From IMG/VR virus record IMGVR_UViG_3300013099_000025, positions 1-53,189 of that record: a stretch of 53,189 nucleotides of DNA; one strand, written 5' to 3'. Under the pieces are notes generated by a model. That model worked only from the letters and a program-made list of their open reading frames with translations, ran no database searches and was not told the origin of the DNA. Numbering within the stretch: position 1 is the stretch's first letter; every line of letters begins with the position of its first letter. Of this stretch, positions 3,749 to 53,018 are shown piece by piece. The translations under genes and the position numbers were made by a program. This DNA is from a virus. Taxonomy: Duplodnaviria > Caudoviricetes.

Positions 3749-4513
3749 ATGGCATTATATCCAGGTTCGGCTAAATTGTTTCCTGATTTGCAAAAATATT
3801 TCAGCAAATATTTAAAAACAAATCAAGTGGATCGTTATGAAGTACCGATTCCAGGTGATATTTATCCAGAACATTTTTCGGATTGTCGATCATTTATTCG
3901 TCTATTATTTGATGATGATTGGAATCATCCGAATTATACACATTGTTATACAAGAATTGATGATAGATCAGCATGGCCTATTTCAGTTAGAGATAGATTG
4001 ATGGTATATGCACATACTGAATATCATTTACCATGTTGTGATTCAACCAATTTGAATTTAGTTTATCAACAATGTGATTCGACATCAACAGAATATTTAA
4101 ATAGTATCGATCATAATCTATCTGATTGTTGTATAGATACGACATCATCATCAAATGTTTTTAGTTTAGAACCAGAGGATTTTCTATTATTGGATGCATT
4201 GAATATTTATAGATGTGATTCAACAGCTGTCATAATATATGAACAAACAACTTTATCAACAAATTCGTTGGTATTATTACCTGATGAACATAAATGGTTA
4301 TTGAGCGTTTCGTTTAGTTCTTTAAATTCTCCATTGGCTAAATTGATTTTTATTTATCTGAATCTGAAAGTTAATTTAGATTATATTTTCTATCAGTGGA
4401 ATGGAACAAATCATTTGAGTAATAATCTAATTGAACATTTATATGAGATATATGTAATAGATAATGTATTTCAATATATGGTAAAATCTGGCCCTGATTT
4501 AATAGAATCATAG
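3749..4513 (+). CDS. hypothetical virion-module protein
   Basis: 254 aa, AAGGA SD, repeated C-D-S-T motifs. Confidence 0.65.
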   Translation: MALYPGSAKLFPDLQKYFSKYLKTNQVDRYEVPIPGDIYPEHFSDCRSFIRLLFDDDWNHPNYTHCYTRIDDRSAWPISVRDRLMVYAHTEYHLPCCDSTNLNLVYQQCDSTSTEYLNSIDHNLSDCCIDTTSSSNVFSLEPEDFLLLDALNIYRCDSTAVIIYEQTTLSTNSLVLLPDEHKWLLSVSFSSLNSPLAKLIFIYLNLKVNLDYIFYQWNGTNHLSNNLIEHLYEIYVIDNVFQYMVKSGPDLIES

Positions 4514-42937: not shown

Positions 42938-43789
42938 CTATATTAGTGAATTATAGTTGAATCCATTCTCAACACCTTTGCAATTAATTGCTATTGCTTC
43001 ATGTGTATGAATAGATTCTTCATGTTTACATTTAACAATCCAATCTACAATACCATCCATTTTCTCTAATTGATATGATATCAATCGGATTGCATCTTCA
43101 ACAAATAACGGATTTTCGGATGCAACTCTAGCTAATTCTTGTTCATCGATTCGTTTTATAATCGGATAGGGTTGTGTAACTAATATTTTATTCATACCTT
43201 CGATAATATCTTCCAACCATATCTGTTTTTTATTTATCAAATCCATCGATATTCTTATTTTTGTAAATGATCTTTGTGCATGTGGGAATCCCATATTCTT
43301 TAATTTAGTCATCAAATGTTTGGCTAATTCAGCTGAACATGGACAATATGATGAATATTGGATTTCTACTGATTGAATAAATTCATATTTCCCATCTACC
43401 CTAGACGCTTCAAATGAACAAGGATAGAATAACGGAAATTCGTTATCGCTGATTGGAGATTTTTTAGAGACAGGTAAATCAAAATAAAATTTGATATAAC
43501 TATCTCTTTCCCCTACAGCACTACTGATTTCATCCAAACATAATTTAATCAATGACCAATTAAGACCTTTATTGAGATAAGGTTTTATTGACAATAACAA
43601 ACGTGACATTGAAATACCTTTTATATTGTCACGTAGATTGGTAGCTATAAATACATTGGCTACCAATTGTGATGTTTCACCATTTCGCAATAATAATGAA
43701 AAAGGCAGTTTTATAGTTTCCACGCCTACTATATTAATTGCGATTCTATATTCCGGTGATGTTTCTTGTATATCTGGTAATAATGTCAT
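42938..43789 (-). CDS. folE2: GTP cyclohydrolase I type B (FolE2)
   Basis: LPDIQ, KGISMSR, SYCPCS, PHAQRS, KRIDE, NPLFVED, HEESIHTH motifs. Confidence 0.92.
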   Translation of the reverse strand: MTLLPDIQETSPEYRIAINIVGVETIKLPFSLLLRNGETSQLVANVFIATNLRDNIKGISMSRLLLSIKPYLNKGLNWSLIKLCLDEISSAVGERDSYIKFYFDLPVSKKSPISDNEFPLFYPCSFEASRVDGKYEFIQSVEIQYSSYCPCSAELAKHLMTKLKNMGFPHAQRSFTKIRISMDLINKKQIWLEDIIEGMNKILVTQPYPIIKRIDEQELARVASENPLFVEDAIRLISYQLEKMDGIVDWIVKCKHEESIHTHEAIAINCKGVENGFNYNSLI

Positions 43790-46700
43790 TTCAAATCATC
43801 TCCAATATCAATCATCATGACATAATTATATGCCTTTAATAATTTCAATGTTTCTGATTCCATATCTGGATTTTCTTCTAAATCAAGATATTCTGTTCCA
43901 ATAGCTTTCTTTAGAAAATTATTTTTACCATCAACACAATCAGATTTTATCGTATAAAATTCTTGTTGATTAATTGGCATATCGTTTGAAACTAAACAAA
44001 TACTTTCCATTTCTCCACACTTCTGTCCACCGTTATTAACCTTACCAGAAACAGGTTGCATGGTTTTTTGTGAAGTTATTCCAATACTTCGATAAGCTAA
44101 TTTCTTTTCAGATCTATGAATCAATTTCATGATATACATATATCCAGTCGCAATCTCATTTATAATATAATCATTTAAAATGGGATCGAAAATTTTATCT
44201 TCGAAATCAGTTTTTGTGTATTTCATTATCTTATGTAAATCTTGATTATTTATAGAATCAAATGGTGGTTGAACAAGATATATGTTATCAATATATTGTT
44301 CATCGATAATATCAGGGAGTAATTGTTTTACATGACTAATGATCCATTTTTCTGGTGTCTTATCAGTCAGATAAATATAATCTATGAAATATTTTTTAAT
44401 ATCATGTTGATCTTTACCATCAACAAGCATTTTCTTCATATTGTTCTTCATATCGATCAAAGATTTAGTCAATGATATTTCAAACAATTGTCCAGTATTC
44501 ATTCGAGAAATAACACCAACTGGATTCAAACAAACATCTACATGTGATCCATCTGGTAATTGTGGCATGACTTCATGTTTTTTAATTGCGGTAATAACAC
44601 CTTTATTTCCATGTCTATTTGCCAGTTTATCTCCAATCTGAATCGGACTTTCATATATCCCATTTATATCTATTCTCACACCTTTGATCAATTCATCTTT
44701 ATTCTTATATTTACCGGGATAACTATGTATATCAAGACTATGTTCAGCTATAATTCTCTTACCATCTTTTTTATCTGTCGTATCTGCAATAACTTGAATC
44801 AATTTGTTATCTTTTTTGATCTGATCATCAATAACTTTATTCATCCATGTGTCATATTCTTTAATATTGGTATACCATTCATTTGCATATACTGTGATAT
44901 CTTCAATCATCAAATCATATTTTGCTGTTCTTTCAAGACTATCTTCAAAAATATTGTAAGCATTATCCTTTATTGCACCAAATAAATACATTTCTTTGAT
45001 GATTGCGTAAATGTCTCCTTTCTTAATAGATGTTCCAATTGGATGAAGAGGTGTATATACATCTGTTTTTCCACCATTCAGATCCAATAAAACTTTTGTC
45101 GGACTAATATTGAATGACATATCCACATAATGTTGTGATGTCAAACAACCATCCTTCACCAATCTATCAGATATTACAATACCATCCTCATGATTATATC
45201 CATAGTATGACATGAAAGCAATTTTGAAATTTTGACCAATTGTTATATTTTCATTCTTACAAAATACACTATATGCCAACACTTGATCTTTTGAAAATTT
45301 ATCTCCTTTCTTTAAATTAGTTATCATCACATCCATATTTTCAGATGTAATTGGTCTGACCCCAATATCGATTACATCAATATTACCTCGATCATATCCA
45401 ATTATAAGATGTTTATTTGCCACAAATAATACTTCACCATCGCCTTTTGCTTTGTGTAAGAAATTACTATATTTAGTAAAACTTCTTTCCGCACCAGAAC
45501 AAATTAACGGTATATGAAAATCCTTTAAAAGAATTGATTGTTTCATCTGACTAGAAGCCATTTGAAGGCGTGTCTGGTCAGTATGTTCAAGAAATGGAAT
45601 CATCGTTATTGGAATCGATGTTATTGACTTTGATTCTGCTGTATCAATGAACTGAAATTTATCATCAAATTTAGCCATTGGATTTATATTTTGAACCACA
45701 CCACAATTTTCTCTATCTGGTGTATCAACGGGACAAATCTTTCCTGTCATTGATCTATTTAAATCTCTCAATTTAGTCGGAACAGATTTCTTTTTAAATC
45801 CATTAGGACCAGTTAAAGATGTTTGAGCAATCTGAGCAATCTGTTCAATTGGATTAATACTAAAATCAAATTGAACAATCTCAGATGTATTGCTATCTCC
45901 AAGTATTTTAGTTTTAGAAATATTAAATTTTGGTTTAGGATCGTTTCTACAATTAACACATAACTTGAAAACGTTTGTTATGAAATACTGTAAAACCGCA
46001 TATTCGAAACATCTGATTCTTTTATTTGCATAATTAAGATCATCATACCAAATATCATTCACTACAATATTCAACAAACAATCAACTATATTATCTTCAT
46101 CAATAAATCGTTTGGTGATAACATCGACATCTAAAACATGCTTCATGGAAAACATGTAATCATTGCCTTTAGCTACTGGATTACGATCAGAAAAATATGA
46201 ACCAATGTTATGAATGAAATCATCTTGTTCTATTTTTTCATCAGAATAATTCAACAAATCCAATAATAATAATTGGTGTAATGATAAATTTTTTGGATCT
46301 GATTCAATCAATTCCCTTTCATTGATATCTGTTAAAAATTTATCTTTAATTTCATCGGGACCGTAAAATGCATTCAACACAATCGCAAAAGGAATATTTC
46401 GTGAAAAAGCAGATATCATTACGAACGAATCAATTTTATTCTTCTTCGTATATTTCCAAAATAAAGATACTCTACCAACATTTGTTTGAATTCGTATCTC
46501 TTTTTTCTTCTTTGTATCAAAAGTTAAAATGGGAATATCAAATAATTGATATTTCGGAATCTTCTTTCTTTTATTTATGGAAAACCATTGTCCATTTATC
46601 AATTTTGGAATCTGCATTGATAGATCAATAATTTTACCCCCTTTTGATAATTTGATTACGATATTTTCTTTCACCGTATTTATCAAATTATGACCACTAT

Positions 46701-46860
46701 ATCTTGTATCTATTTTTTCAAATCTATCAATTACAAAATCACATAAAACAGGGACTTTTAATATTTCCTCAATATCATCCATTAATTGATCGTAATTTTC
46801 TTGTCGTATAGTAAATATATTTCTTTCCGGTAAATGTAATTCTGGATTATCTGGATACAT
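43786..46860 (-). CDS. rpoB: phage multisubunit RNA polymerase beta subunit
   Basis: GKICPVDTPDRENCG, RLQMASSQMKQ, GYNHEDG, GDKLANRHGNKGVI, NPVGVISRMN.GQ, GGQKCGEME. Confidence 0.95.
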   Translation of the reverse strand: MYPDNPELHLPERNIFTIRQENYDQLMDDIEEILKVPVLCDFVIDRFEKIDTRYSGHNLINTVKENIVIKLSKGGKIIDLSMQIPKLINGQWFSINKRKKIPKYQLFDIPILTFDTKKKKEIRIQTNVGRVSLFWKYTKKNKIDSFVMISAFSRNIPFAIVLNAFYGPDEIKDKFLTDINERELIESDPKNLSLHQLLLLDLLNYSDEKIEQDDFIHNIGSYFSDRNPVAKGNDYMFSMKHVLDVDVITKRFIDEDNIVDCLLNIVVNDIWYDDLNYANKRIRCFEYAVLQYFITNVFKLCVNCRNDPKPKFNISKTKILGDSNTSEIVQFDFSINPIEQIAQIAQTSLTGPNGFKKKSVPTKLRDLNRSMTGKICPVDTPDRENCGVVQNINPMAKFDDKFQFIDTAESKSITSIPITMIPFLEHTDQTRLQMASSQMKQSILLKDFHIPLICSGAERSFTKYSNFLHKAKGDGEVLFVANKHLIIGYDRGNIDVIDIGVRPITSENMDVMITNLKKGDKFSKDQVLAYSVFCKNENITIGQNFKIAFMSYYGYNHEDGIVISDRLVKDGCLTSQHYVDMSFNISPTKVLLDLNGGKTDVYTPLHPIGTSIKKGDIYAIIKEMYLFGAIKDNAYNIFEDSLERTAKYDLMIEDITVYANEWYTNIKEYDTWMNKVIDDQIKKDNKLIQVIADTTDKKDGKRIIAEHSLDIHSYPGKYKNKDELIKGVRIDINGIYESPIQIGDKLANRHGNKGVITAIKKHEVMPQLPDGSHVDVCLNPVGVISRMNTGQLFEISLTKSLIDMKNNMKKMLVDGKDQHDIKKYFIDYIYLTDKTPEKWIISHVKQLLPDIIDEQYIDNIYLVQPPFDSINNQDLHKIMKYTKTDFEDKIFDPILNDYIINEIATGYMYIMKLIHRSEKKLAYRSIGITSQKTMQPVSGKVNNGGQKCGEMESICLVSNDMPINQQEFYTIKSDCVDGKNNFLKKAIGTEYLDLEENPDMESETLKLLKAYNYVMMIDIGDDLK

Positions 46861-46881
46861 ACACTCATTCCTTTCTAATTA

Positions 46882-48567
46882 TTAAATATTTTTGTATGAT
46901 ACACCACACATAATTTTATCAATGACCCCACCAGAATATAGACCAGGCCTCAATAATCCATTTATCAATTCACGCTTTGTATTTGAGAATGAAATTCCCA
47001 TTATCCAACTTTCTAATGATGGAATATTTACAATAGATTTCATCTGATATGGCTTGTTTTCCCTATCTTCTAATGTTCTCCATTTATGTCCATCGTCAAA
47101 CCACATCAATTGTGCAACAAGACATTCGAAATGAACATGCATAAAGAATCTATCTTTTGAATAAATCTCAAATAAATCTGTAACTAATTGATCAGCATTA
47201 CTATTTTTTTCGTATTTATGAACCATTTTAGATATCAATGTCAATGCTCCAACAATATCTTTCTGTTCCATCTCACCGGAATCATTGATGAAATCATCGT
47301 CGATTGAAGCTACTCCTGATTTATGAAATGTCTGTAATACCATTTGGGTATTCGATTCACCTAATGCTTGAGACGCAATCGATCCAACAAATCTACTATT
47401 ATTTAGATGACGATATAATTCTCCATAACATCTCTTACAAACTTTCTCAGATTTACAATACATCACACTTCTGATAAAAATCTTTTTATTGACAAGTGTT
47501 TTTAAATTAGATGGTTTAACCATGAATAATGAATCGTGATCATCTGGTGAAAATGTTATCCATCGACCAATTATAGATTGTGCTTTTTTCTCATCTGGAA
47601 TAAATATAGAAAGATAATCTGTTGTTCCGCAATCATCGTTATCATAATCTAACATCAGATTAGAACAAGCGAATGCGAATTTTCTGAATAAATACCCTGA
47701 GAAAGATGTTTTTATTGCAACATCCAATAATCCTTTTCTACAACCAAATGATGATGTAAAAAATTCTTCTGGTGTCAATCCATCTACAAATGAATTTTTA
47801 ATTGGTGTGGTTAAAATATGTCCTTTAAAATTTGATATGAATCCCCGTGATAGAATCAATTGTCTTGCTTGATCCCAACTTCCTCTTGCACCGGATTCGA
47901 TCATATCTGTATATTGGAAATTTTCACGTAAAAATTTAGAGACTCTTGGACCATTGATTTCTTTGATTTGATCTGTCACTTTATCCAAAGAATAAATCTC
48001 ATCACGCAATTTAGTTTGTGATAACATACCTTTCAATGAAATAGTATGACCAATAACAGTTGCATATACAAAACCAACAGTTTTTATATTGTCTAAAATA
48101 TCTCTGATTTTTCCATTATATTTATTGAAAGCGTCGTAAATATATTGTCGGATAACATCAGATGTCACTGGTTTATTAATCAATTGAAAATCATCTGGAA
48201 AACATTCATTTATTATTTTCATTCCAGCTGTTATTTCTTCATTCTTATATTTTACTTTTTCGCCAAATTTACCATCTGTTATAGTGCTTAACATAAATAA
48301 TCCCAATACCATTTCCTGACTTGGTGTGGTAGTGATTTTCATATCAGTTGGATTTAACAGACAATTTGTTGATAATGCTTGTGTTTTAGCTTCTTCTTGA
48401 GATTCTGGTGTCACTGGAAGATATACAGCCATCGAATCTTGAACAAACACTCCATCGTGTGTAGCGAAAGTAAAATAATCTTCGATTGTAAAATCATAAG
48501 CCGTTGTTTTTTCTGGATCATGTGTTATTTCTATTTCAGATATCGGAATTAGAATTCTATCATTCAT
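46882..48567 (-). CDS. rpoC: RNA polymerase beta' C-terminal part, fused behind a 44-aa C-intein
   Basis: After residue 44: SMAVYLP, TPSQEMVLGL, SGARG, bridge helix RKGLLDVAIKTSFSGYLFRK, CKRCYG, trigger loop QALGESNTQMVLQTFH; own AAGGGG SD. Confidence 0.93.
   Translation of the reverse strand: MNDRILIPISEIEITHDPEKTTAYDFTIEDYFTFATHDGVFVQDSMAVYLPVTPESQEEAKTQALSTNCLLNPTDMKITTTPSQEMVLGLFMLSTITDGKFGEKVKYKNEEITAGMKIINECFPDDFQLINKPVTSDVIRQYIYDAFNKYNGKIRDILDNIKTVGFVYATVIGHTISLKGMLSQTKLRDEIYSLDKVTDQIKEINGPRVSKFLRENFQYTDMIESGARGSWDQARQLILSRGFISNFKGHILTTPIKNSFVDGLTPEEFFTSSFGCRKGLLDVAIKTSFSGYLFRKFAFACSNLMLDYDNDDCGTTDYLSIFIPDEKKAQSIIGRWITFSPDDHDSLFMVKPSNLKTLVNKKIFIRSVMYCKSEKVCKRCYGELYRHLNNSRFVGSIASQALGESNTQMVLQTFHKSGVASIDDDFINDSGEMEQKDIVGALTLISKMVHKYEKNSNADQLVTDLFEIYSKDRFFMHVHFECLVAQLMWFDDGHKWRTLEDRENKPYQMKSIVNIPSLESWIMGISFSNTKRELINGLLRPGLYSGGVIDKIMCGVSYKNI
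48436..48567 (-). mobile_element. split intein C-half (44 aa; blocks F/G)
   Basis: AYDFTIEDYFTFATHDGVFVQD|S resembles the block F (VYDL.V....F.ANG) and G consensus, with QD in place of HN and Ser+1. Confidence 0.85.
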
Positions 48568-48600
48568 CTATGTGACCCCTTTTTAGGAAATATTTTGTAC

Positions 48601-48642
48601 GTTTCTCTATGATGAAAAACTATGTTTCCATCATAGAGAAAC
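48601..48642. terminator. 14-bp-stem hairpin between the endonuclease gene and the beta'-C gene
   Basis: GTTTCTCTATGATG / CATCATAGAGAAAC. Confidence 0.6.
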
Positions 48643-48648
48643 AAATTT

Positions 48649-49776
48649 TTAAAAATATTTAATTCGTATAAATTTACAGTTTAAAACATTCTCAATTTTT
48701 TTCTGTCGATGATCATCTTTTTCTTTAATTCTTTTATGATGTTTTTCATCAATTTCGATTACGATGTTTCTTTGTGCGTCATAACCATCGACAAGATAAT
48801 TGGTATTTGGAACTTTGAATTCTCCACCATTTTCAGCATGTTGGAAATTATACCCCCATGAATCATTGAATTGTTGAATTAGATTACATGCTTTTTTGTT
48901 ATACATCAATGAATTGCTTTTACTATAATTCGAATTAGCAATATGTTCATTTATGGTTTGTCTCATTTGTTCTTTCTGACACTCTCGTTGTGCTGGATTC
49001 TCCACTCCAAATTGTTCCATATTTGTTTCTTTAATTTTTTCTTTTACTTCTTCTGCTTGAAATGGATTTTCGACACCATAATGTTCTTTTGTTGTTTCTA
49101 TCTTTTTAGCTTTTACTTCTGGTATTTTAGAAACATTATCCACACCATGCTTCATTCTAACACCGGCTTTTTGTGCTTGCTTTCCTTCTTCTGTCTGCCA
49201 CGGAAAATCAGTTCCATACCTTTGTTGTGATGTTTCGATTTTCTTTTGTTGAATCGTGTCCAATTGAGAAATATTATCAACACCATAAATTTCTTTTACT
49301 GTTTCTTGCATCGTATCGATATAGGCAGCTTTTTCAGATCCATAATTTTTGATCGCTGTTGCCTTTTTCTTTTGAATAAATTCTTCTGACGATTGTTTCT
49401 TTGCCAGAATTTTTAGACTACAAGATCGACAACAAGTATCTGAAAAATAAATCAATTTCTCTTTTTTCTTATATGAAAGAATTGCGTATTTCTCTTTACA
49501 TACTTTACATTTTTCAAGAGAATCCAATGTCAGATAATTATTATTCAGTGCCCATAATCTGACATTTACTGTTAATTGCTGTTTCTTGGCATTCGGATAT
49601 GCTTCATCTAAATGACACGTTGCAAGCATAAGTTTTTCTTTTCTATATGCACAACCACCAGCTATGAACCAACGATAATTCTTTTCATTTGCAAATTTTG
49701 GATTCTTGTTCAGTGTTTCGATTTGATTCACACACCATTCACGAGCTTTAACAATTTCTTCTTCTGAATGTAACAT
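48649..49776 (-). mobile_element. free-standing homing endonuclease (Vsr/EDxHD-like PD-(D/E)xK domain with tandem DNA-binding repeats)
   Basis: About 23-aa repeats YGVDNISQ/YGTDFPWQ/HGVDNVSK/YGVENPFQ/FGVENPAQ; C-terminal GGEF..YLVDGYD...VIEIDEKHH...D..RQ..IE...KFIRI; located between the intein halves. Confidence 0.8.
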
Positions 49777-49790
49777 TTTTAAAATATCTC

Positions 49791-51404
49791 CTAATATTTT
49801 TGTTGAACTAAATACCTCCCTTCTGGATTTTCCAACAATTCTTCAGGAGATATTTTTATATTCTTTTGTTCGTTCTCATCCCATACGATTAAACTATGAT
49901 CATCAGATACCCAAAAATCTTCAAATCGATTCTGTGGGTCATGTATGGAAAACATTTTCAAATTACGATGTTCAGAATAATCCAAAATCTTCTTTTCAGC
50001 TATTGTTCCATCGTCTAAACTTATTGCTTTGATGTGCATTTCTTCAGTTGGTTTGTAATGACTTACATTTTCTTTTTCTTTCTCTGGAATGTGTTTAAAC
50101 ATATCAGTATCTTTCAAATCTGCAATATGTTTTACTATACTTTCTTTCTTTTCATTTGTCAAGTGTATAGTACATAATGCTGAGTCCCCGTCAAAATCTG
50201 CGTTAAATCCACGACAAACCATCGGGTGAATACATATAACATCAATTGGCTCAACTTTTATTTTGAATGCGACTAAACTTAATTTATGTAAACTAGGTTG
50301 TCTATTGAGTAAACAGACATCATCACCAATAATCTCTTCACATATTTTCAATAGATGCGGATCATTGTGAAATTGACATTCTTCGACGCATTCCAATGCT
50401 CTATGGATTGATTTGAAATGACCATCATCTATTAATTTTTTAGCAATTTTTATCTTATATAATTCAAGAATCATTCGATATGGTAAAATACATTCATCTA
50501 ATTTAATTGTGGGAGATGGTGCAATCACCGCACGACCTGAAAAATCTATTCGTTTTCCTAAGATATTGCCTCTGATTAATCCTTCTTTCTTCGATATATT
50601 ATCGATAATATAATCAAATAAATCATCGACATTTCTTTGGAATTGACTATAGTATTCTTGATAGATTTTCATATGCCGTGTTATATCAATATCTCCAGCA
50701 GCCATAATTTCTTTTCTGACTAGAATCTGATAATAATATTGATTTAATTGATCGACTGAATTTGTAGTTGGATTTATTTGAGAAATGGGTCGCATTGAAG
50801 GAGGGATAACAATCACTTCGTATAGAAATAAATGTTCATCCACATTCTTCAATAACATCTTAAATTGTTCATTTTCTGGATCAATGATCATATAAGTTTT
50901 GATGGTATTGACGATTAATTTCTCAACAGCTTCATGCATCTGCCAATAATCATACTTCAAATCACTGATTTTTTCATCTTCTTCAAGTGTTTTCAAAATA
51001 AATTCATCATTATATTCGTATAAAATATTTCTATGTGATTTCATTAATTTTGTCACATCATCAAATAATAATTTTTCAGATGAAGGTAATATTTTCTTAA
51101 CAAGGGAAAGATATGTTCTATTAAGCAATGGTATTGGTAAAGTTATTTTAGCAAATTGCCTCCTTCGTTTGAGACTGTTTGTAATTTCTAAATCATCACA
51201 AAATTTTCCACCGCATTTAGCAATTTGACCTTCGGAATGTTTTCCATGATATATTCCACATCGACAAGTATAATTATTTTCTAAACCGAATATATGTTCT
51301 GAAAATAATCCATATCTATGATATTTCTTCTTCTTCTCAAAATAACCAGAGGTAGTTATTTCTGGTAAATCTTTCGCAAATTCTCTATTTAATAATTTAG
51401 GCAT
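49791..51404 (-). CDS. rpoC: RNA polymerase beta' N-terminal part (ends at catalytic NADFDGD) fused to a 130-aa N-intein
   Basis: GLFSEHIFG, CRCG zinc finger, PPSMRP, GNILGKRIDFSGRAVI, LNRQPSLH, NADFDGD at 50184-50204. Confidence 0.95.
   Translation of the reverse strand: MPKLLNREFAKDLPEITTSGYFEKKKKYHRYGLFSEHIFGLENNYTCRCGIYHGKHSEGQIAKCGGKFCDDLEITNSLKRRRQFAKITLPIPLLNRTYLSLVKKILPSSEKLLFDDVTKLMKSHRNILYEYNDEFILKTLEEDEKISDLKYDYWQMHEAVEKLIVNTIKTYMIIDPENEQFKMLLKNVDEHLFLYEVIVIPPSMRPISQINPTTNSVDQLNQYYYQILVRKEIMAAGDIDITRHMKIYQEYYSQFQRNVDDLFDYIIDNISKKEGLIRGNILGKRIDFSGRAVIAPSPTIKLDECILPYRMILELYKIKIAKKLIDDGHFKSIHRALECVEECQFHNDPHLLKICEEIIGDDVCLLNRQPSLHKLSLVAFKIKVEPIDVICIHPMVCRGFNADFDGDSALCTIHLTNEKKESIVKHIADLKDTDMFKHIPEKEKENVSHYKPTEEMHIKAISLDDGTIAEKKILDYSEHRNLKMFSIHDPQNRFEDFWVSDDHSLIVWDENEQKNIKISPEELLENPEGRYLVQQKY
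49794..50183 (-). mobile_element. split intein N-half (130 aa; Ser1, block B SDDH)
   Basis: RNAP similarity stops after DFDGD; SALCTIHL...HIADL...AISLDDG....KKI...H...FWVSDDHSLIV is a HINT-domain N-region with a TxxH-like block B. Confidence 0.85.
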
Positions 51405-51480
51405 TTATTATGATACTCCACTATATAAATATTTAAGAAAAAAATTATACATTTCAGCTATATAACTATGTTGTGATTAA

Positions 51481-51522
51481 TTTTAAAAACAGCCCATGAT
51501 TTAACATGGACTGTTTTTAAAA
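51481..51522 (-). terminator. hairpin upstream of the beta' gene
   Basis: TTTTAAAAACAG...CTGTTTTTAAAA with an inner CATG/CATG pair. Confidence 0.6.
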
Positions 51523-51525
51523 TTT

Positions 51526-52206
51526 TTATACCATTCTTAGCTGTTTAGCAACATTCATCATACCATAAATAAAATCCCGTTCAGGGACATTCATAATAGA
51601 TGATAATGGTTTTTTGAAATTATTTAACATATACCCCATGTTAAATCTTTTCTTTACTTTTTTACGAGGAATCATAATATCATTTTTTTGATCATATAAC
51701 ATATCAACATCACCAAAATCAACAGAAACTTTCGATAAATCAAACCAATATCCCTCATCGAAATCCCAATATGATAAATCATTGATTAATTTATTCAATG
51801 ATATATTGATTGGATCTTGTGCATATGATTTATACGGATTCTTGCAGAATTCATATAATTCAAATTGTTTTCCTTTGTATGTATATTCTAATTCATTCGT
51901 GATCATTGTAAGTGTTTCTGTAGAGAAATGATCAAATTTATTTATAAGTTTTGCATTTGGATGGTGTGCATCTACCAAATAAATATTTGTGATTTCTGCA
52001 CGTTTTTCTTTTGTATTGCGTGGTATGTATTTAATTAATAGTTTATGAACAATACAGAATTCGTCATAAATTTTATCGATATTCACATCGAATCCGAAAC
52101 ATTTTAAATATCTTGGATTGATCACACAATCTACTAAAAGCATTGGTTTTTCAGAATATACCATTCTATGGTTCAAAATTGTAGGAATTGGAATGCTGTC
52201 TAACAT
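51526..52206 (-). CDS. hypothetical protein (HPN motif; possible E2-like fold)
   Basis: TGATG coupling to the ThiF-like gene; DAHHPNA...EFC. Confidence 0.6.
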   Translation of the reverse strand: MLDSIPIPTILNHRMVYSEKPMLLVDCVINPRYLKCFGFDVNIDKIYDEFCIVHKLLIKYIPRNTKEKRAEITNIYLVDAHHPNAKLINKFDHFSTETLTMITNELEYTYKGKQFELYEFCKNPYKSYAQDPINISLNKLINDLSYWDFDEGYWFDLSKVSVDFGDVDMLYDQKNDIMIPRKKVKKRFNMGYMLNNFKKPLSSIMNVPERDFIYGMMNVAKQLRMV

Positions 52207-53018
52207 CAAGCTCCTCCTATCTGATTTATAATATTTAGTTGTAAAGTGTCTCCTCTTATTGATGGCACCGTATATACGGCAGGAAAATTATCTATCTCCT
52301 GTCTGATTGTTGTCACTATATTGTTTACAATTTCTGAAATATTATTATCATATATTTGGAATGATTCATTTTTCAGATTATACATCCCATCTAAGATATC
52401 AACATTGACATGTTTGATATTATTGTTTTCACATGTGATTAATTTTTCAATATAATCATGGGAGACATTTTGTGATGGATGTAAATTTTCAATCATCCCG
52501 ATTTGATTTATTGAAATAGCTGTCCTGTCTGTTATATATCCTACAATTCTTATTTTTTCATTACAAAACATATTTACAAATCTAACAATTAATGATTTGA
52601 TAAATTGATTATTGATATAACTAACATATTCTCCTTCAACTTCAAATCTAAATGAAATAGTTTTTCTGAAATCAATAATCAATTTATCCTTATTTATGAA
52701 TAATTTAATAGCATCGAATGTTTGTCTATCCTCGAACGTATCTCTACAATCAAAAATAGTTGAACATTGATTTATAATTTTTTGGATTTTTGGTGATAAT
52801 TTATTTGATTCAATATATTCACATATCCCTGTGACATTAGAATATTGCGATTCACATGAATTTACTTTCTTTCTTCCAACATATTTCACATTATATTGAA
52901 TGTTATTTTTATTTACAACATCGCCGTCGATCACAACAAATTGTTCATGAGGTAATTTTCTTTGTAATGAATCTAACAAATTTTTTCCTAATGAGCCTAC
53001 TCCTATTATTCCAATCAT
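52206..53018 (-). CDS. ThiF/E1-like adenylyltransferase family protein
   Basis: IGIIGVGSLG, IDGDVV...N, GRKKV, IFDCRD Rossmann/ThiF motifs; ends QIGGA. Confidence 0.75.
   Translation of the reverse strand: MIGIIGVGSLGKNLLDSLQRKLPHEQFVVIDGDVVNKNNIQYNVKYVGRKKVNSCESQYSNVTGICEYIESNKLSPKIQKIINQCSTIFDCRDTFEDRQTFDAIKLFINKDKLIIDFRKTISFRFEVEGEYVSYINNQFIKSLIVRFVNMFCNEKIRIVGYITDRTAISINQIGMIENLHPSQNVSHDYIEKLITCENNNIKHVNVDILDGMYNLKNESFQIYDNNISEIVNNIVTTIRQEIDNFPAVYTVPSIRGDTLQLNIINQIGGA

Follow-up and report, generated by a model that had tools for sequence, protein, structure and literature searches.

A putative split intein with its own endonuclease gene at the catalytic motif of a phage RNA polymerase beta' gene

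How does a phage obtain the beta' subunit of a multisubunit RNA polymerase when the gene breaks off at the catalytic NADFDGD motif and resumes only in the second open reading frame (ORF) downstream? The question is posed by the window, by which we mean the whole 53,189-base stretch of an IMG/VR virus record that was analyzed here (∼30% G+C; CheckV completeness estimate, 17%). Genes for a tail sheath, a baseplate wedge protein, and a large terminase mark it as a fragment of a large tailed phage. Our best explanation, in which we have high confidence as a whole, is that a split intein of the HINT fold with its own endonuclease gene cuts beta' in a large myovirus-like phage, and that the 924-amino acid (aa) enzyme is made by protein trans-splicing. 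A sequence-only reading of the window had proposed a split intein with a free-standing endonuclease directly after NADFDGD. That proposal is now supported by an exact insertion relative to empty alleles in close relatives, a HINT fold, the predicted association of the two halves upon co-folding, conserved nucleophiles, and contiguous inteins at the same site.

A beta' Gene Interrupted after NADFDGD

The locus consists of four consecutive ORFs on the minus strand: 51404–49791 (537 aa), 49776–48649 (375 aa), 48567–46882 (561 aa), and 46860–43786 (1024 aa). The first reads ...GFNADFDGD and then runs on for 130 residues to a stop, and the third opens with 44 residues before continuing as SMAVYLP. 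We divide the locus into the parts below, where IntN and IntC are the N- and C-terminal intein segments and the exteins are the flanking beta' segments; values after Pfam names are expect values (E).

50184–51404, minus strand: beta' N-extein, 407 aa, ending in the catalytic NADFDGD (50204–50184); Pfam RNA_pol_Rpb1_2 8.8e-27, Rpb1_1 3.3e-9
49791–50183, minus strand: IntN, 130 aa from Ser1 (SALCTIHL...YLVQQKY), with block B S-D-D-H; stop codon TAG at 49793–49791
48649–49776, minus strand: free-standing homing endonuclease gene, 375 aa; Pfam DUF7487, PHROG "homing endonuclease"
48600–48643, minus strand: hairpin with a 19-bp stem, between the endonuclease stop and the IntC start, from RNA folding
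48568–48580, minus strand: ribosome-binding region of the C-half gene, AGGGG at 48580–48576, 8 nt before the ATG at 48567
48436–48567, minus strand: IntC, 44 aa (MNDRILIPIS...THDGVFVQD) with a Gln-Asp end, from translation, alignment A2, and co-folding
46882–48435, minus strand: beta' C-extein, 517 aa from Ser+1 (SMAVYLP...) plus the stop; Pfam Rpb1_5 4.8e-25, Rpb1_3 3.8e-5, Rpb1_4 7.2e-4
43786–46860, minus strand: adjacent beta subunit gene, uninterrupted, 1024 aa; Pfam RNA_pol_Rpb2_6 3.9e-46

The N-extein thus ends at base 50184, the intein interval extends from 50183 to 48436, and the C-extein starts at 48435, with exteins of 407 + 517 = 924 aa and intein parts of 130 + 44 aa. Checked against the ORF list, the translations, and Pfam, the three-ORF layout in the sequence-only reading is right in every figure, including the coordinates, the lengths, and the position of NADFDGD. 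Its claim that the second half carries its own Shine-Dalgarno sequence likewise holds, and the length that it gave for the joined exteins equals that of an uninterrupted relative (P0008, 924 aa). A contig built by another assembler (run X1) covers 46500–51173 with three differing letters, no gaps, and no joints and shows the same layout, so the arrangement is no artifact of a single assembly program; run X1 may be the source sample of the record, and its contig is therefore not counted as independent data. The contigs of run X2 cover only short, diverged pieces of the window.

Close relatives of the first ORF are of two kinds: proteins of ∼525–542 aa that cover the whole query and uninterrupted beta' proteins of 921–924 aa (P0008, P0009, P0010, and P0012). 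The latter are the related phages with a continuous beta' that the sequence-only reading had suggested looking for. The closest comparison is P0008, which is 80% identical to the window N-extein and 82% to the C-extein and reads NADFDGD/AMAVYLP. Aligned at the DNA level, P0008 (L030) and the window correspond codon for codon to either side of the junction, where the window carries 1,748 inserted bases, 50183–48436, at the exact point after NADFDGD; the codon that follows is Ser (TCG) in the window and Ala (GCA) in the empty allele. The insertion is therefore in frame, at a conserved site, and missing from close homologues, as expected of an intein. Occupied and empty alleles are mixed among the nearest relatives, which is the signature of a mobile insertion. 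Among known phages the best matches are 24–30% identical (in 70 and 149 records), with no close relative among them.

Fold, Association, and Splice Junctions

Three profiles were used for family-level comparisons: A1 from 12 N-inteins (the N-half of P0016 was examined and excluded), A2 from 15 split C-halves, and A3, a wider alignment that joins the window halves with contiguous inteins. Searched against 1.84 billion representative proteins, A1 matches 116 clusters at E ≤ 0.001, and the window intein belongs to this sizable, uncharacterized family. Ten of the 116 clusters were covered by a Pfam scan. One, P0229, has a contiguous mini-intein directly after ADFDGD that matches Intein_splicing (2.6e-5, 24.5 bits). 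In P0254 and P0212, a region like that of the window IntN is followed by a LAGLIDADG domain, and P0261 is a minimal contiguous version. In A3, the window IntN and IntC are collinear with the contiguous P0229 and P0261, and the break falls at the linker of both. The linker of contiguous inteins is the usual seat of nested endonuclease domains. The window therefore has the makeup of a fractured gene, with extein-IntN, endonuclease, and IntC-extein as separate ORFs on one strand, split at the canonical point of endonuclease insertion.

Structure prediction points the same way. For the AlphaFold2 (AF2) model of IntN (predicted local distance difference test score, pLDDT, 82.9), the 18 best rows (ranks 1–19) among the Foldseek Protein Data Bank (PDB) matches listed are all inteins, with probabilities of 0.98–1.00, query-normalized template modeling (TM) scores (TMq) of 0.40–0.64, and a best E of only 1.5e-3. 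The contiguous same-site intein of P0261, modeled on A3 and thus with the window halves included, reaches a pLDDT of 95.8 and has 50 PDB matches at E ≤ 0.001; all rows listed are inteins or intein-like HINT domains, the best being the fused Aes123 PolB1 split intein (E 6e-9, TM 0.73). Co-folding of the two halves, proposed in the sequence-only reading, was carried out with A1 and A2 and gives an interface score (interaction prediction score from aligned errors, ipSAE) of 0.84 compared with 0.00 for the best of three controls. Of 80 solved complexes, 58 attain that mark, as do 2 of 110 mismatched pairs; these counts are rough because our own alignments were used. At least 93% of contacts agree between runs, partner pLDDT is at least 79, and the interface comprises IntN residues 1–7 and 120–130 and IntC residues 3–17 and 20–45, bringing together in the model both splice junctions and a strand pair at the split point. 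The IntN model, the model of the contiguous homologue, and the co-fold agree in predicting a HINT fold for the element. The sequence-only reading had staked its claim on such a fold, and IntN and the same-site contiguous homologue do match solved inteins in this respect.

The splice-junction residues are conserved. Residue 1 is Ser (11) or Cys (2) in all 13 split N-halves, the window included with Ser, and is Ser, Thr, or Cys in the contiguous homologues. In the motif that we take, from the naming used for inteins, to be block B, the window has S93-D-D-H96, of which S93, D95, and H96 are invariant in 12 of 12 A1 rows (S-x-D-H); the familiar Thr-x-x-His is thus present with Ser replacing Thr. 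All 15 split C-halves in A2 end in Gln-Asp (Q43 and D44 in the window) followed by Ser (6), Thr (6), or Cys (3); P0129 and P0171 start after the junction and are uninformative on this ending, and a more distant locus, L007, ends in Phe-Asp followed by Cys. Six uninterrupted relatives have Ala (3), Thr (1), or Gln (2) after NADFDGD. Apart from the phages, bacterial rpoC of metagenome-assembled genomes at six loci (L043, L048, L055, L082, L085, and L091) reads NADFDGDSMSVH, where Ser replaces the Gln usually found and nothing is inserted, so Ser at this point is tolerated in working polymerases.

Several points weigh against a splicing intein. Single-sequence Pfam scans of IntN and IntC, the scan suggested in the sequence-only reading, find no intein and return only spurious matches (PAP_assoc 0.066, SplA 0.092), and phmmer searches of the PDB with the single IntN and IntC sequences find none either. 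The Pab PolII intein is the one PDB match of profile A1 below E 1 (E 0.0014, over the block ending D-H-x-x-x-V); A3 matches the same intein at E 5.3e-4, in both cases as the sole PDB match below E 0.5; and the IntC profile A2 alone has no PDB match. These profile matches are weak (E ∼1e-3), and the 24.5 bits of P0229 lie below the curated Intein_splicing cutoff of 35.8. The co-fold may owe part of its score to likeness to solved split-intein structures. The DUF559 match of the endonuclease (E 1.1e-3, 19.2 bits) falls under its cutoff of 20.6, and the splicing chemistry, as well as the target and activity of the endonuclease, are points that we infer. The +1 residue carries less weight than the rest of the junction, given Ser in six intein-less rpoC and Thr in one empty allele. 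Finally, the C-terminal His-Asn typical of inteins is replaced by Gln-Asp, an ending that is rare and slow in some studied inteins. The accessible text of PMC4031507 describes inteins with C-terminal Asp, Gln, or Glu that use the same mechanism, with that residue cyclizing, and states that the penultimate His can be lost. Such ends are thus accepted variants, and Gln-Asp does not exclude membership among inteins, although it does mark this family as atypical.

The atypical ending would also suit intein halves that are splicing-dead remnants and hold the beta' fragments together noncovalently as interaction domains. The strong predicted IntN-IntC association would fit as well, and a phage ribonucleotide reductase whose fragments are brought together by interaction domains derived from an element, as outlined in the part of PMC3045599 available to us, is a precedent. 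However, all 13 split N-halves retain a nucleophile at residue 1, all 15 split C-halves retain one at +1, and all 12 A1 rows have S-x-D-H, down to ∼37% intein identity, which argues against a mere dimerization domain because such a domain needs none of these residues. Moreover, the Mg-binding loop of RNA polymerase lies deep in the active center, and a HINT domain of ∼174 aa left there should block catalysis. We consider dead remnants quite unlikely and retain a splicing-competent split intein as the preferred reading.

The Endonuclease and the Related Loci

The gene between the two halves encodes a 375-aa protein with a Cys-rich N-terminal part, DUF7487 repeats (∼49371–49036; Pfam 6.7e-25), and a C-terminal DUF559/Vsr-like region (∼48813–48688). 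That it is a free-standing homing endonuclease, as the sequence-only reading held, is borne out by matches to two PHROG "homing endonuclease" families (9.5e-16 and 3.3e-14) and by homologous ORFs between the halves in 10 related loci. The string ...VDGYD...IEIDEKHH... looks compatible with the E-D-x-H-D motif, as judged from the letters and with DUF559 itself below threshold. A PDB sequence search gives no meaningful match, and none to 3r3p; Pfam at E ≤ 1 finds no NUMOD-type DNA-binding motifs, a mark of the I-Bth0305I family, and finds the DUF7487 repeats instead. Among 13 middle ORFs compared, 10 match the window endonuclease (E 2e-42 to 2.5e-14), and those of L020, L022, and L029 do not; nor does a 14th ORF, at L029 1530–2894 upstream of its N-half (E 0.32). 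We note that in an alignment of these endonucleases (A4) the DUF7487 region is common and the C-terminal nuclease modules appear different, as read by eye from motifs: Vsr/DUF559-like in the window (48649–49776), HNH-like in L006 (6386–7456), L008 (409–1500), and L017 (929–2032), and PD-(D/E)xK-like in L010, L014, L015, L018, and L026.

Between the endonuclease stop and the IntC start, the hairpin at 48600–48643 has a perfect 19-bp stem (-27.1 kcal/mol, z-score -5.5; none of 200 shuffles folds as well) and is not followed by a T-run. It may have a role in RNA processing, RNA stability, or regulation of translation.

The forms that the element takes elsewhere were classified by script in 26 loci from viral and metagenome collections, 23 of them distinct (L003 = L011, L007 = L012, L018 = L019). 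A canonical split with an endonuclease ORF between the halves is found in the window, L003, L006, L013, L014, L015, and L017, and L008 and L010 are alike but incomplete; L007, L009, and L028 have the canonical split without the endonuclease. L009, whose IntN is 75% identical to that of the window, keeps in its 219-base spacer (4114–4332) a 38-residue remnant resembling residues 2–34 of the window endonuclease (E 4e-6 in a single comparison), as well as a 16-bp hairpin just before the IntC start, the same position as in the window. The remnant and the hairpin suggest that the endonuclease of L009 was lost by deletion. In a second type of fracture (L018, L026, L025, L029, L020, L022, and L024), only ∼10–37 intein residues stay on the N-half and the rest heads the C-half; the coordinates are 2353–7535 in L018, 2285–7340 in L026, 2613–5895 in L025, and 2994–7295 in L029. 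The C-half ORF of this type opens with the remaining N-region, has block B at approximately residues 70–84, and reads on through Gln-Asp to Thr or Ser; the proteins P0235, P0236, and P0255 exemplify this split. L018 and L026 have a homologue of the endonuclease gene in the interval separating the halves; L025 has none. L027 (1162 aa) represents the contiguous form. In G001, a 118-kb phage record, the halves are dispersed, with an N-half carrying IntN at L005 4867–6390 and a C-half carrying IntC at L033 (ORF from locus base 1480), ∼76 kb apart on opposite strands, an arrangement that resembles cyanobacterial dnaE.

The dispersed halves bear on whether the interval might be removed as RNA, as part of a self-splicing intron with the endonuclease gene inside it, the "intein" parts then being intron read-through. 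Phage polymerase genes often have group I introns with endonuclease ORFs, according to the available text of bioRxiv 10.1101/2020.12.14.422802, and the interval does contain a strong hairpin. However, an Rfam scan of 46500–51800 finds no intron family at E ≤ 1 and only two subthreshold snoRNA matches that we attribute to chance, and the flanks are predicted to fold as HINT, show conservation at the protein level, and line up collinearly with contiguous in-frame inteins. In G001, the halves are beyond the reach of any RNA cis-splicing. We give RNA splicing almost no credence, and an element removed at the protein level remains the reading that we follow.

The element also appears to have moved between phages. 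P0011 and P0130 share 45% and 47% extein identity with the window and 72% and 84% intein identity; intein identity so far above that of the exteins points to lateral transfer of the intein and, judged from these sequences, suggests a recent one between divergent phages. Further inteins were seen in the C-half of two proteins: P0243 (1159 aa) has a second one within Rpb1 domain 5 (Pfam Intein_splicing 4e-7, weak Hom_end), and P0151 (981 aa) has one by a precomputed PF14890 assignment, so inteins occupy more than one site in the beta' genes of this phage group. A distant N-intein-like stretch (E 1e-7 to 1e-3) also occurs at approximately residues 1400–2600 of proteins of ∼2000–3200 aa (L004 1582–7611, P0305, and P0310–P0325), and these may be inteins in giant phage proteins.

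A last question is whether the interrupted gene is in use at all. The window record is an estimated 17% complete, and a host polymerase or a second phage polymerase encoded outside the 53-kb fragment could do the work if the interrupted beta' were inactive or decaying; in G002, a 207-kb phage record, an uninterrupted 911-aa beta' indeed stands beside a split copy. The split copy of G002 comprises L032 (46467–48002 of the record), L035, and L034; the ORF with IntC ends two codons past Gln-Asp and Thr, and a different ORF takes up the remaining C-extein from approximately residue 104. This copy may have a further insertion or be decaying. In the window, by contrast, neither ORF is damaged, every Pfam domain is present, and the catalytic motif is complete; intact split ORFs occur in many lineages whose exteins are 43–84% identical, which implies purifying selection on both halves. 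Decay of the window gene is accordingly very unlikely in our judgment, and we hold to a functional, trans-spliced beta'.

Elsewhere in the window, a FolE2 (type I GTP cyclohydrolase) gene (42938–43789, Pfam 2.9e-60) lies directly downstream of the beta gene, which may point to queuosine-type or 7-deazaguanine DNA modification, and a ThiF-like ORF, under the Pfam cutoff, lies upstream of the polymerase genes (52206–53018). Promoter-like sites are not in excess (38 versus 36.0 ± 7.3 in shuffles), nor are terminator-like sites (2 versus 1.3 ± 1.1), none of the latter within the element.

Proposed Mechanism and Known Systems

We propose that a mobile element entered beta' in frame directly after the last Asp of NADFDGD, and that the gene would be expressed as two polypeptides, beta'(1–407)-IntN and IntC-beta'(408–924). 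IntN and IntC would associate, with the last IntN strand pairing with the LIPI strand of IntC. In class 1-type protein trans-splicing, Ser1 would attack the Asp407-Ser1 bond, the N-extein would be transferred to Ser+1, the terminal Asp44 of IntC would cyclize, a step usually taken by Asn, and an O-to-N shift would yield the 924-aa beta' reading NADFDGD-SMAVYLP (junction peptide NADFDGDSMAVYLP). The endonuclease, with its DUF7487 DNA-binding repeats and Vsr/DUF559-like nuclease, would most likely cut the intein-less beta' of co-infecting relatives, after which the whole element would be copied into the intein-less allele. A more speculative extension, which we think doubtful taken as a whole, is that slow or conditional trans-splicing by the Gln-Asp and all-Ser junctions acts as a timer of phage transcription, that an endonuclease cutting catalytic-site codons serves as an inter-phage weapon, and that the element shares descent with the archaeal PolD DP2 intein and tracks the catalytic loop of two-barrel polymerases. 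If the timer held true, active phage RNA polymerase would appear only after both halves accumulate.

On the preferred reading, the fractured-gene arrangement extends from replication and nucleotide-metabolism genes to a core transcription enzyme, with the break at the Mg-binding loop that is indispensable to any polymerase. The 116 clusters amount to a natural series at one site, from contiguous mini-inteins through LAGLIDADG forms, canonical splits with and without endonuclease, and dispersed halves to a second, short-N split, and they are good material on how split inteins arise. Naturally split inteins with Ser/Ser or Ser/Thr junctions and a C-terminal Asp are also candidates for orthogonal, redox-insensitive protein ligation. 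For annotation, beta' genes that seem truncated at NADFDGD in uncultured large phages should not be called pseudogenes.

The closest known layout is that of the fractured genes described by Dassa et al. in 2009 (PMC2677866), where, in the text accessible to us, the gp41-1, gp41-8, IMPDH-1, NrdJ-1, and NrdA-2 split inteins are accompanied by a free-standing endonuclease. As in the window, an extein-IntN ORF, an endonuclease ORF, and an IntC-extein ORF with its own start lie on one strand of phage-like metagenomic DNA. The Vsr-like endonuclease class, an endonuclease-less allele, and hairpins near the endonuclease gene are common to those genes, so far as that text goes, and to the window family. 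The host genes there are helicase, IMPDH, DnaE, NrdA, NrdJ, ligase, and terminase, and "RNA polymerase" is absent from the main text of that paper. The window differs, on the same basis, in that its host gene encodes RNA polymerase beta', its hairpin is downstream rather than upstream of the endonuclease gene, its intein ends in Gln-Asp, and the same intein allele occurs split at another position as well.

Inteins in RNA polymerases are themselves known, all contiguous in the sources at hand: in the archaeal A' and A'' subunits, in the second-largest subunits of eukaryotes and giant viruses, and in chloroplast RpoB (PMC1635734, PMC4760082, PMC5784728, each available in part). The archaeal largest-subunit examples, Mja rPol A', Mja rPol A'', and Nph rPol A'' (accessible portion of PMC1635734), sit in homologues of beta' like the window intein, but they are contiguous and in cellular genomes. 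When one genome from each of 185,579 prokaryote species was scanned for NADFDGD followed by a Cys, Ser, or Trp codon, 61 loci were found, three of which match the N-intein profile, all of them metagenome-assembled contigs. The scan, which does not extend to a Thr start or to sites within the motif, returned no Methanocaldococcus and no isolate archaeon, so the archaeal rPol inteins do not occupy this precise site with Cys or Ser as their first residue. Searches of the literature aimed at inteins of phage or multisubunit RNA polymerases returned no prior intein in a phage beta' in the text they covered, and the novelty that the sequence-only reading claimed for a fractured layout at the active site of a multisubunit RNA polymerase stands within that literature.

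Two further inteins of polymerase genes are instructive. The Aes123 PolB1 cysteine-less split intein (PDB 9hth) likewise lies in a phage polymerase gene and, by its entry title, uses Ser rather than Cys chemistry; it differs in its sequence (16–17% identity), its DNA polymerase B host, and its Asn end (entry title, N159A). The Pab PolII intein (PDB 2lcj), which belongs to the archaeal PolD DP2 (Pol II) inteins, is the sole significant PDB sequence match of our profiles and shares with the window a noncanonical C-terminal residue, in its case Gln (PMC4031507, accessible part). According to the available portions of PMC7708050 and PMC4996933, the archaeal PolD DP2 intein separates the N from the C of NCDGD, a loop structurally equivalent to DFDGD. 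The claim of active-site novelty therefore stands for multisubunit RNA polymerase and gives way for the wider family, in which an intein in the homologous PolD DP2 catalytic loop was, on the evidence of those two sources, already known. As described there, that intein differs in being contiguous, in its archaeal DNA polymerase host, and in lying four residues earlier in the loop. The weak sequence similarity (E ∼1e-3) does not establish common descent and may reflect either descent or chance; the archaeal PolD DP2 intein is nevertheless the nearest functional analogue of the element in the window.

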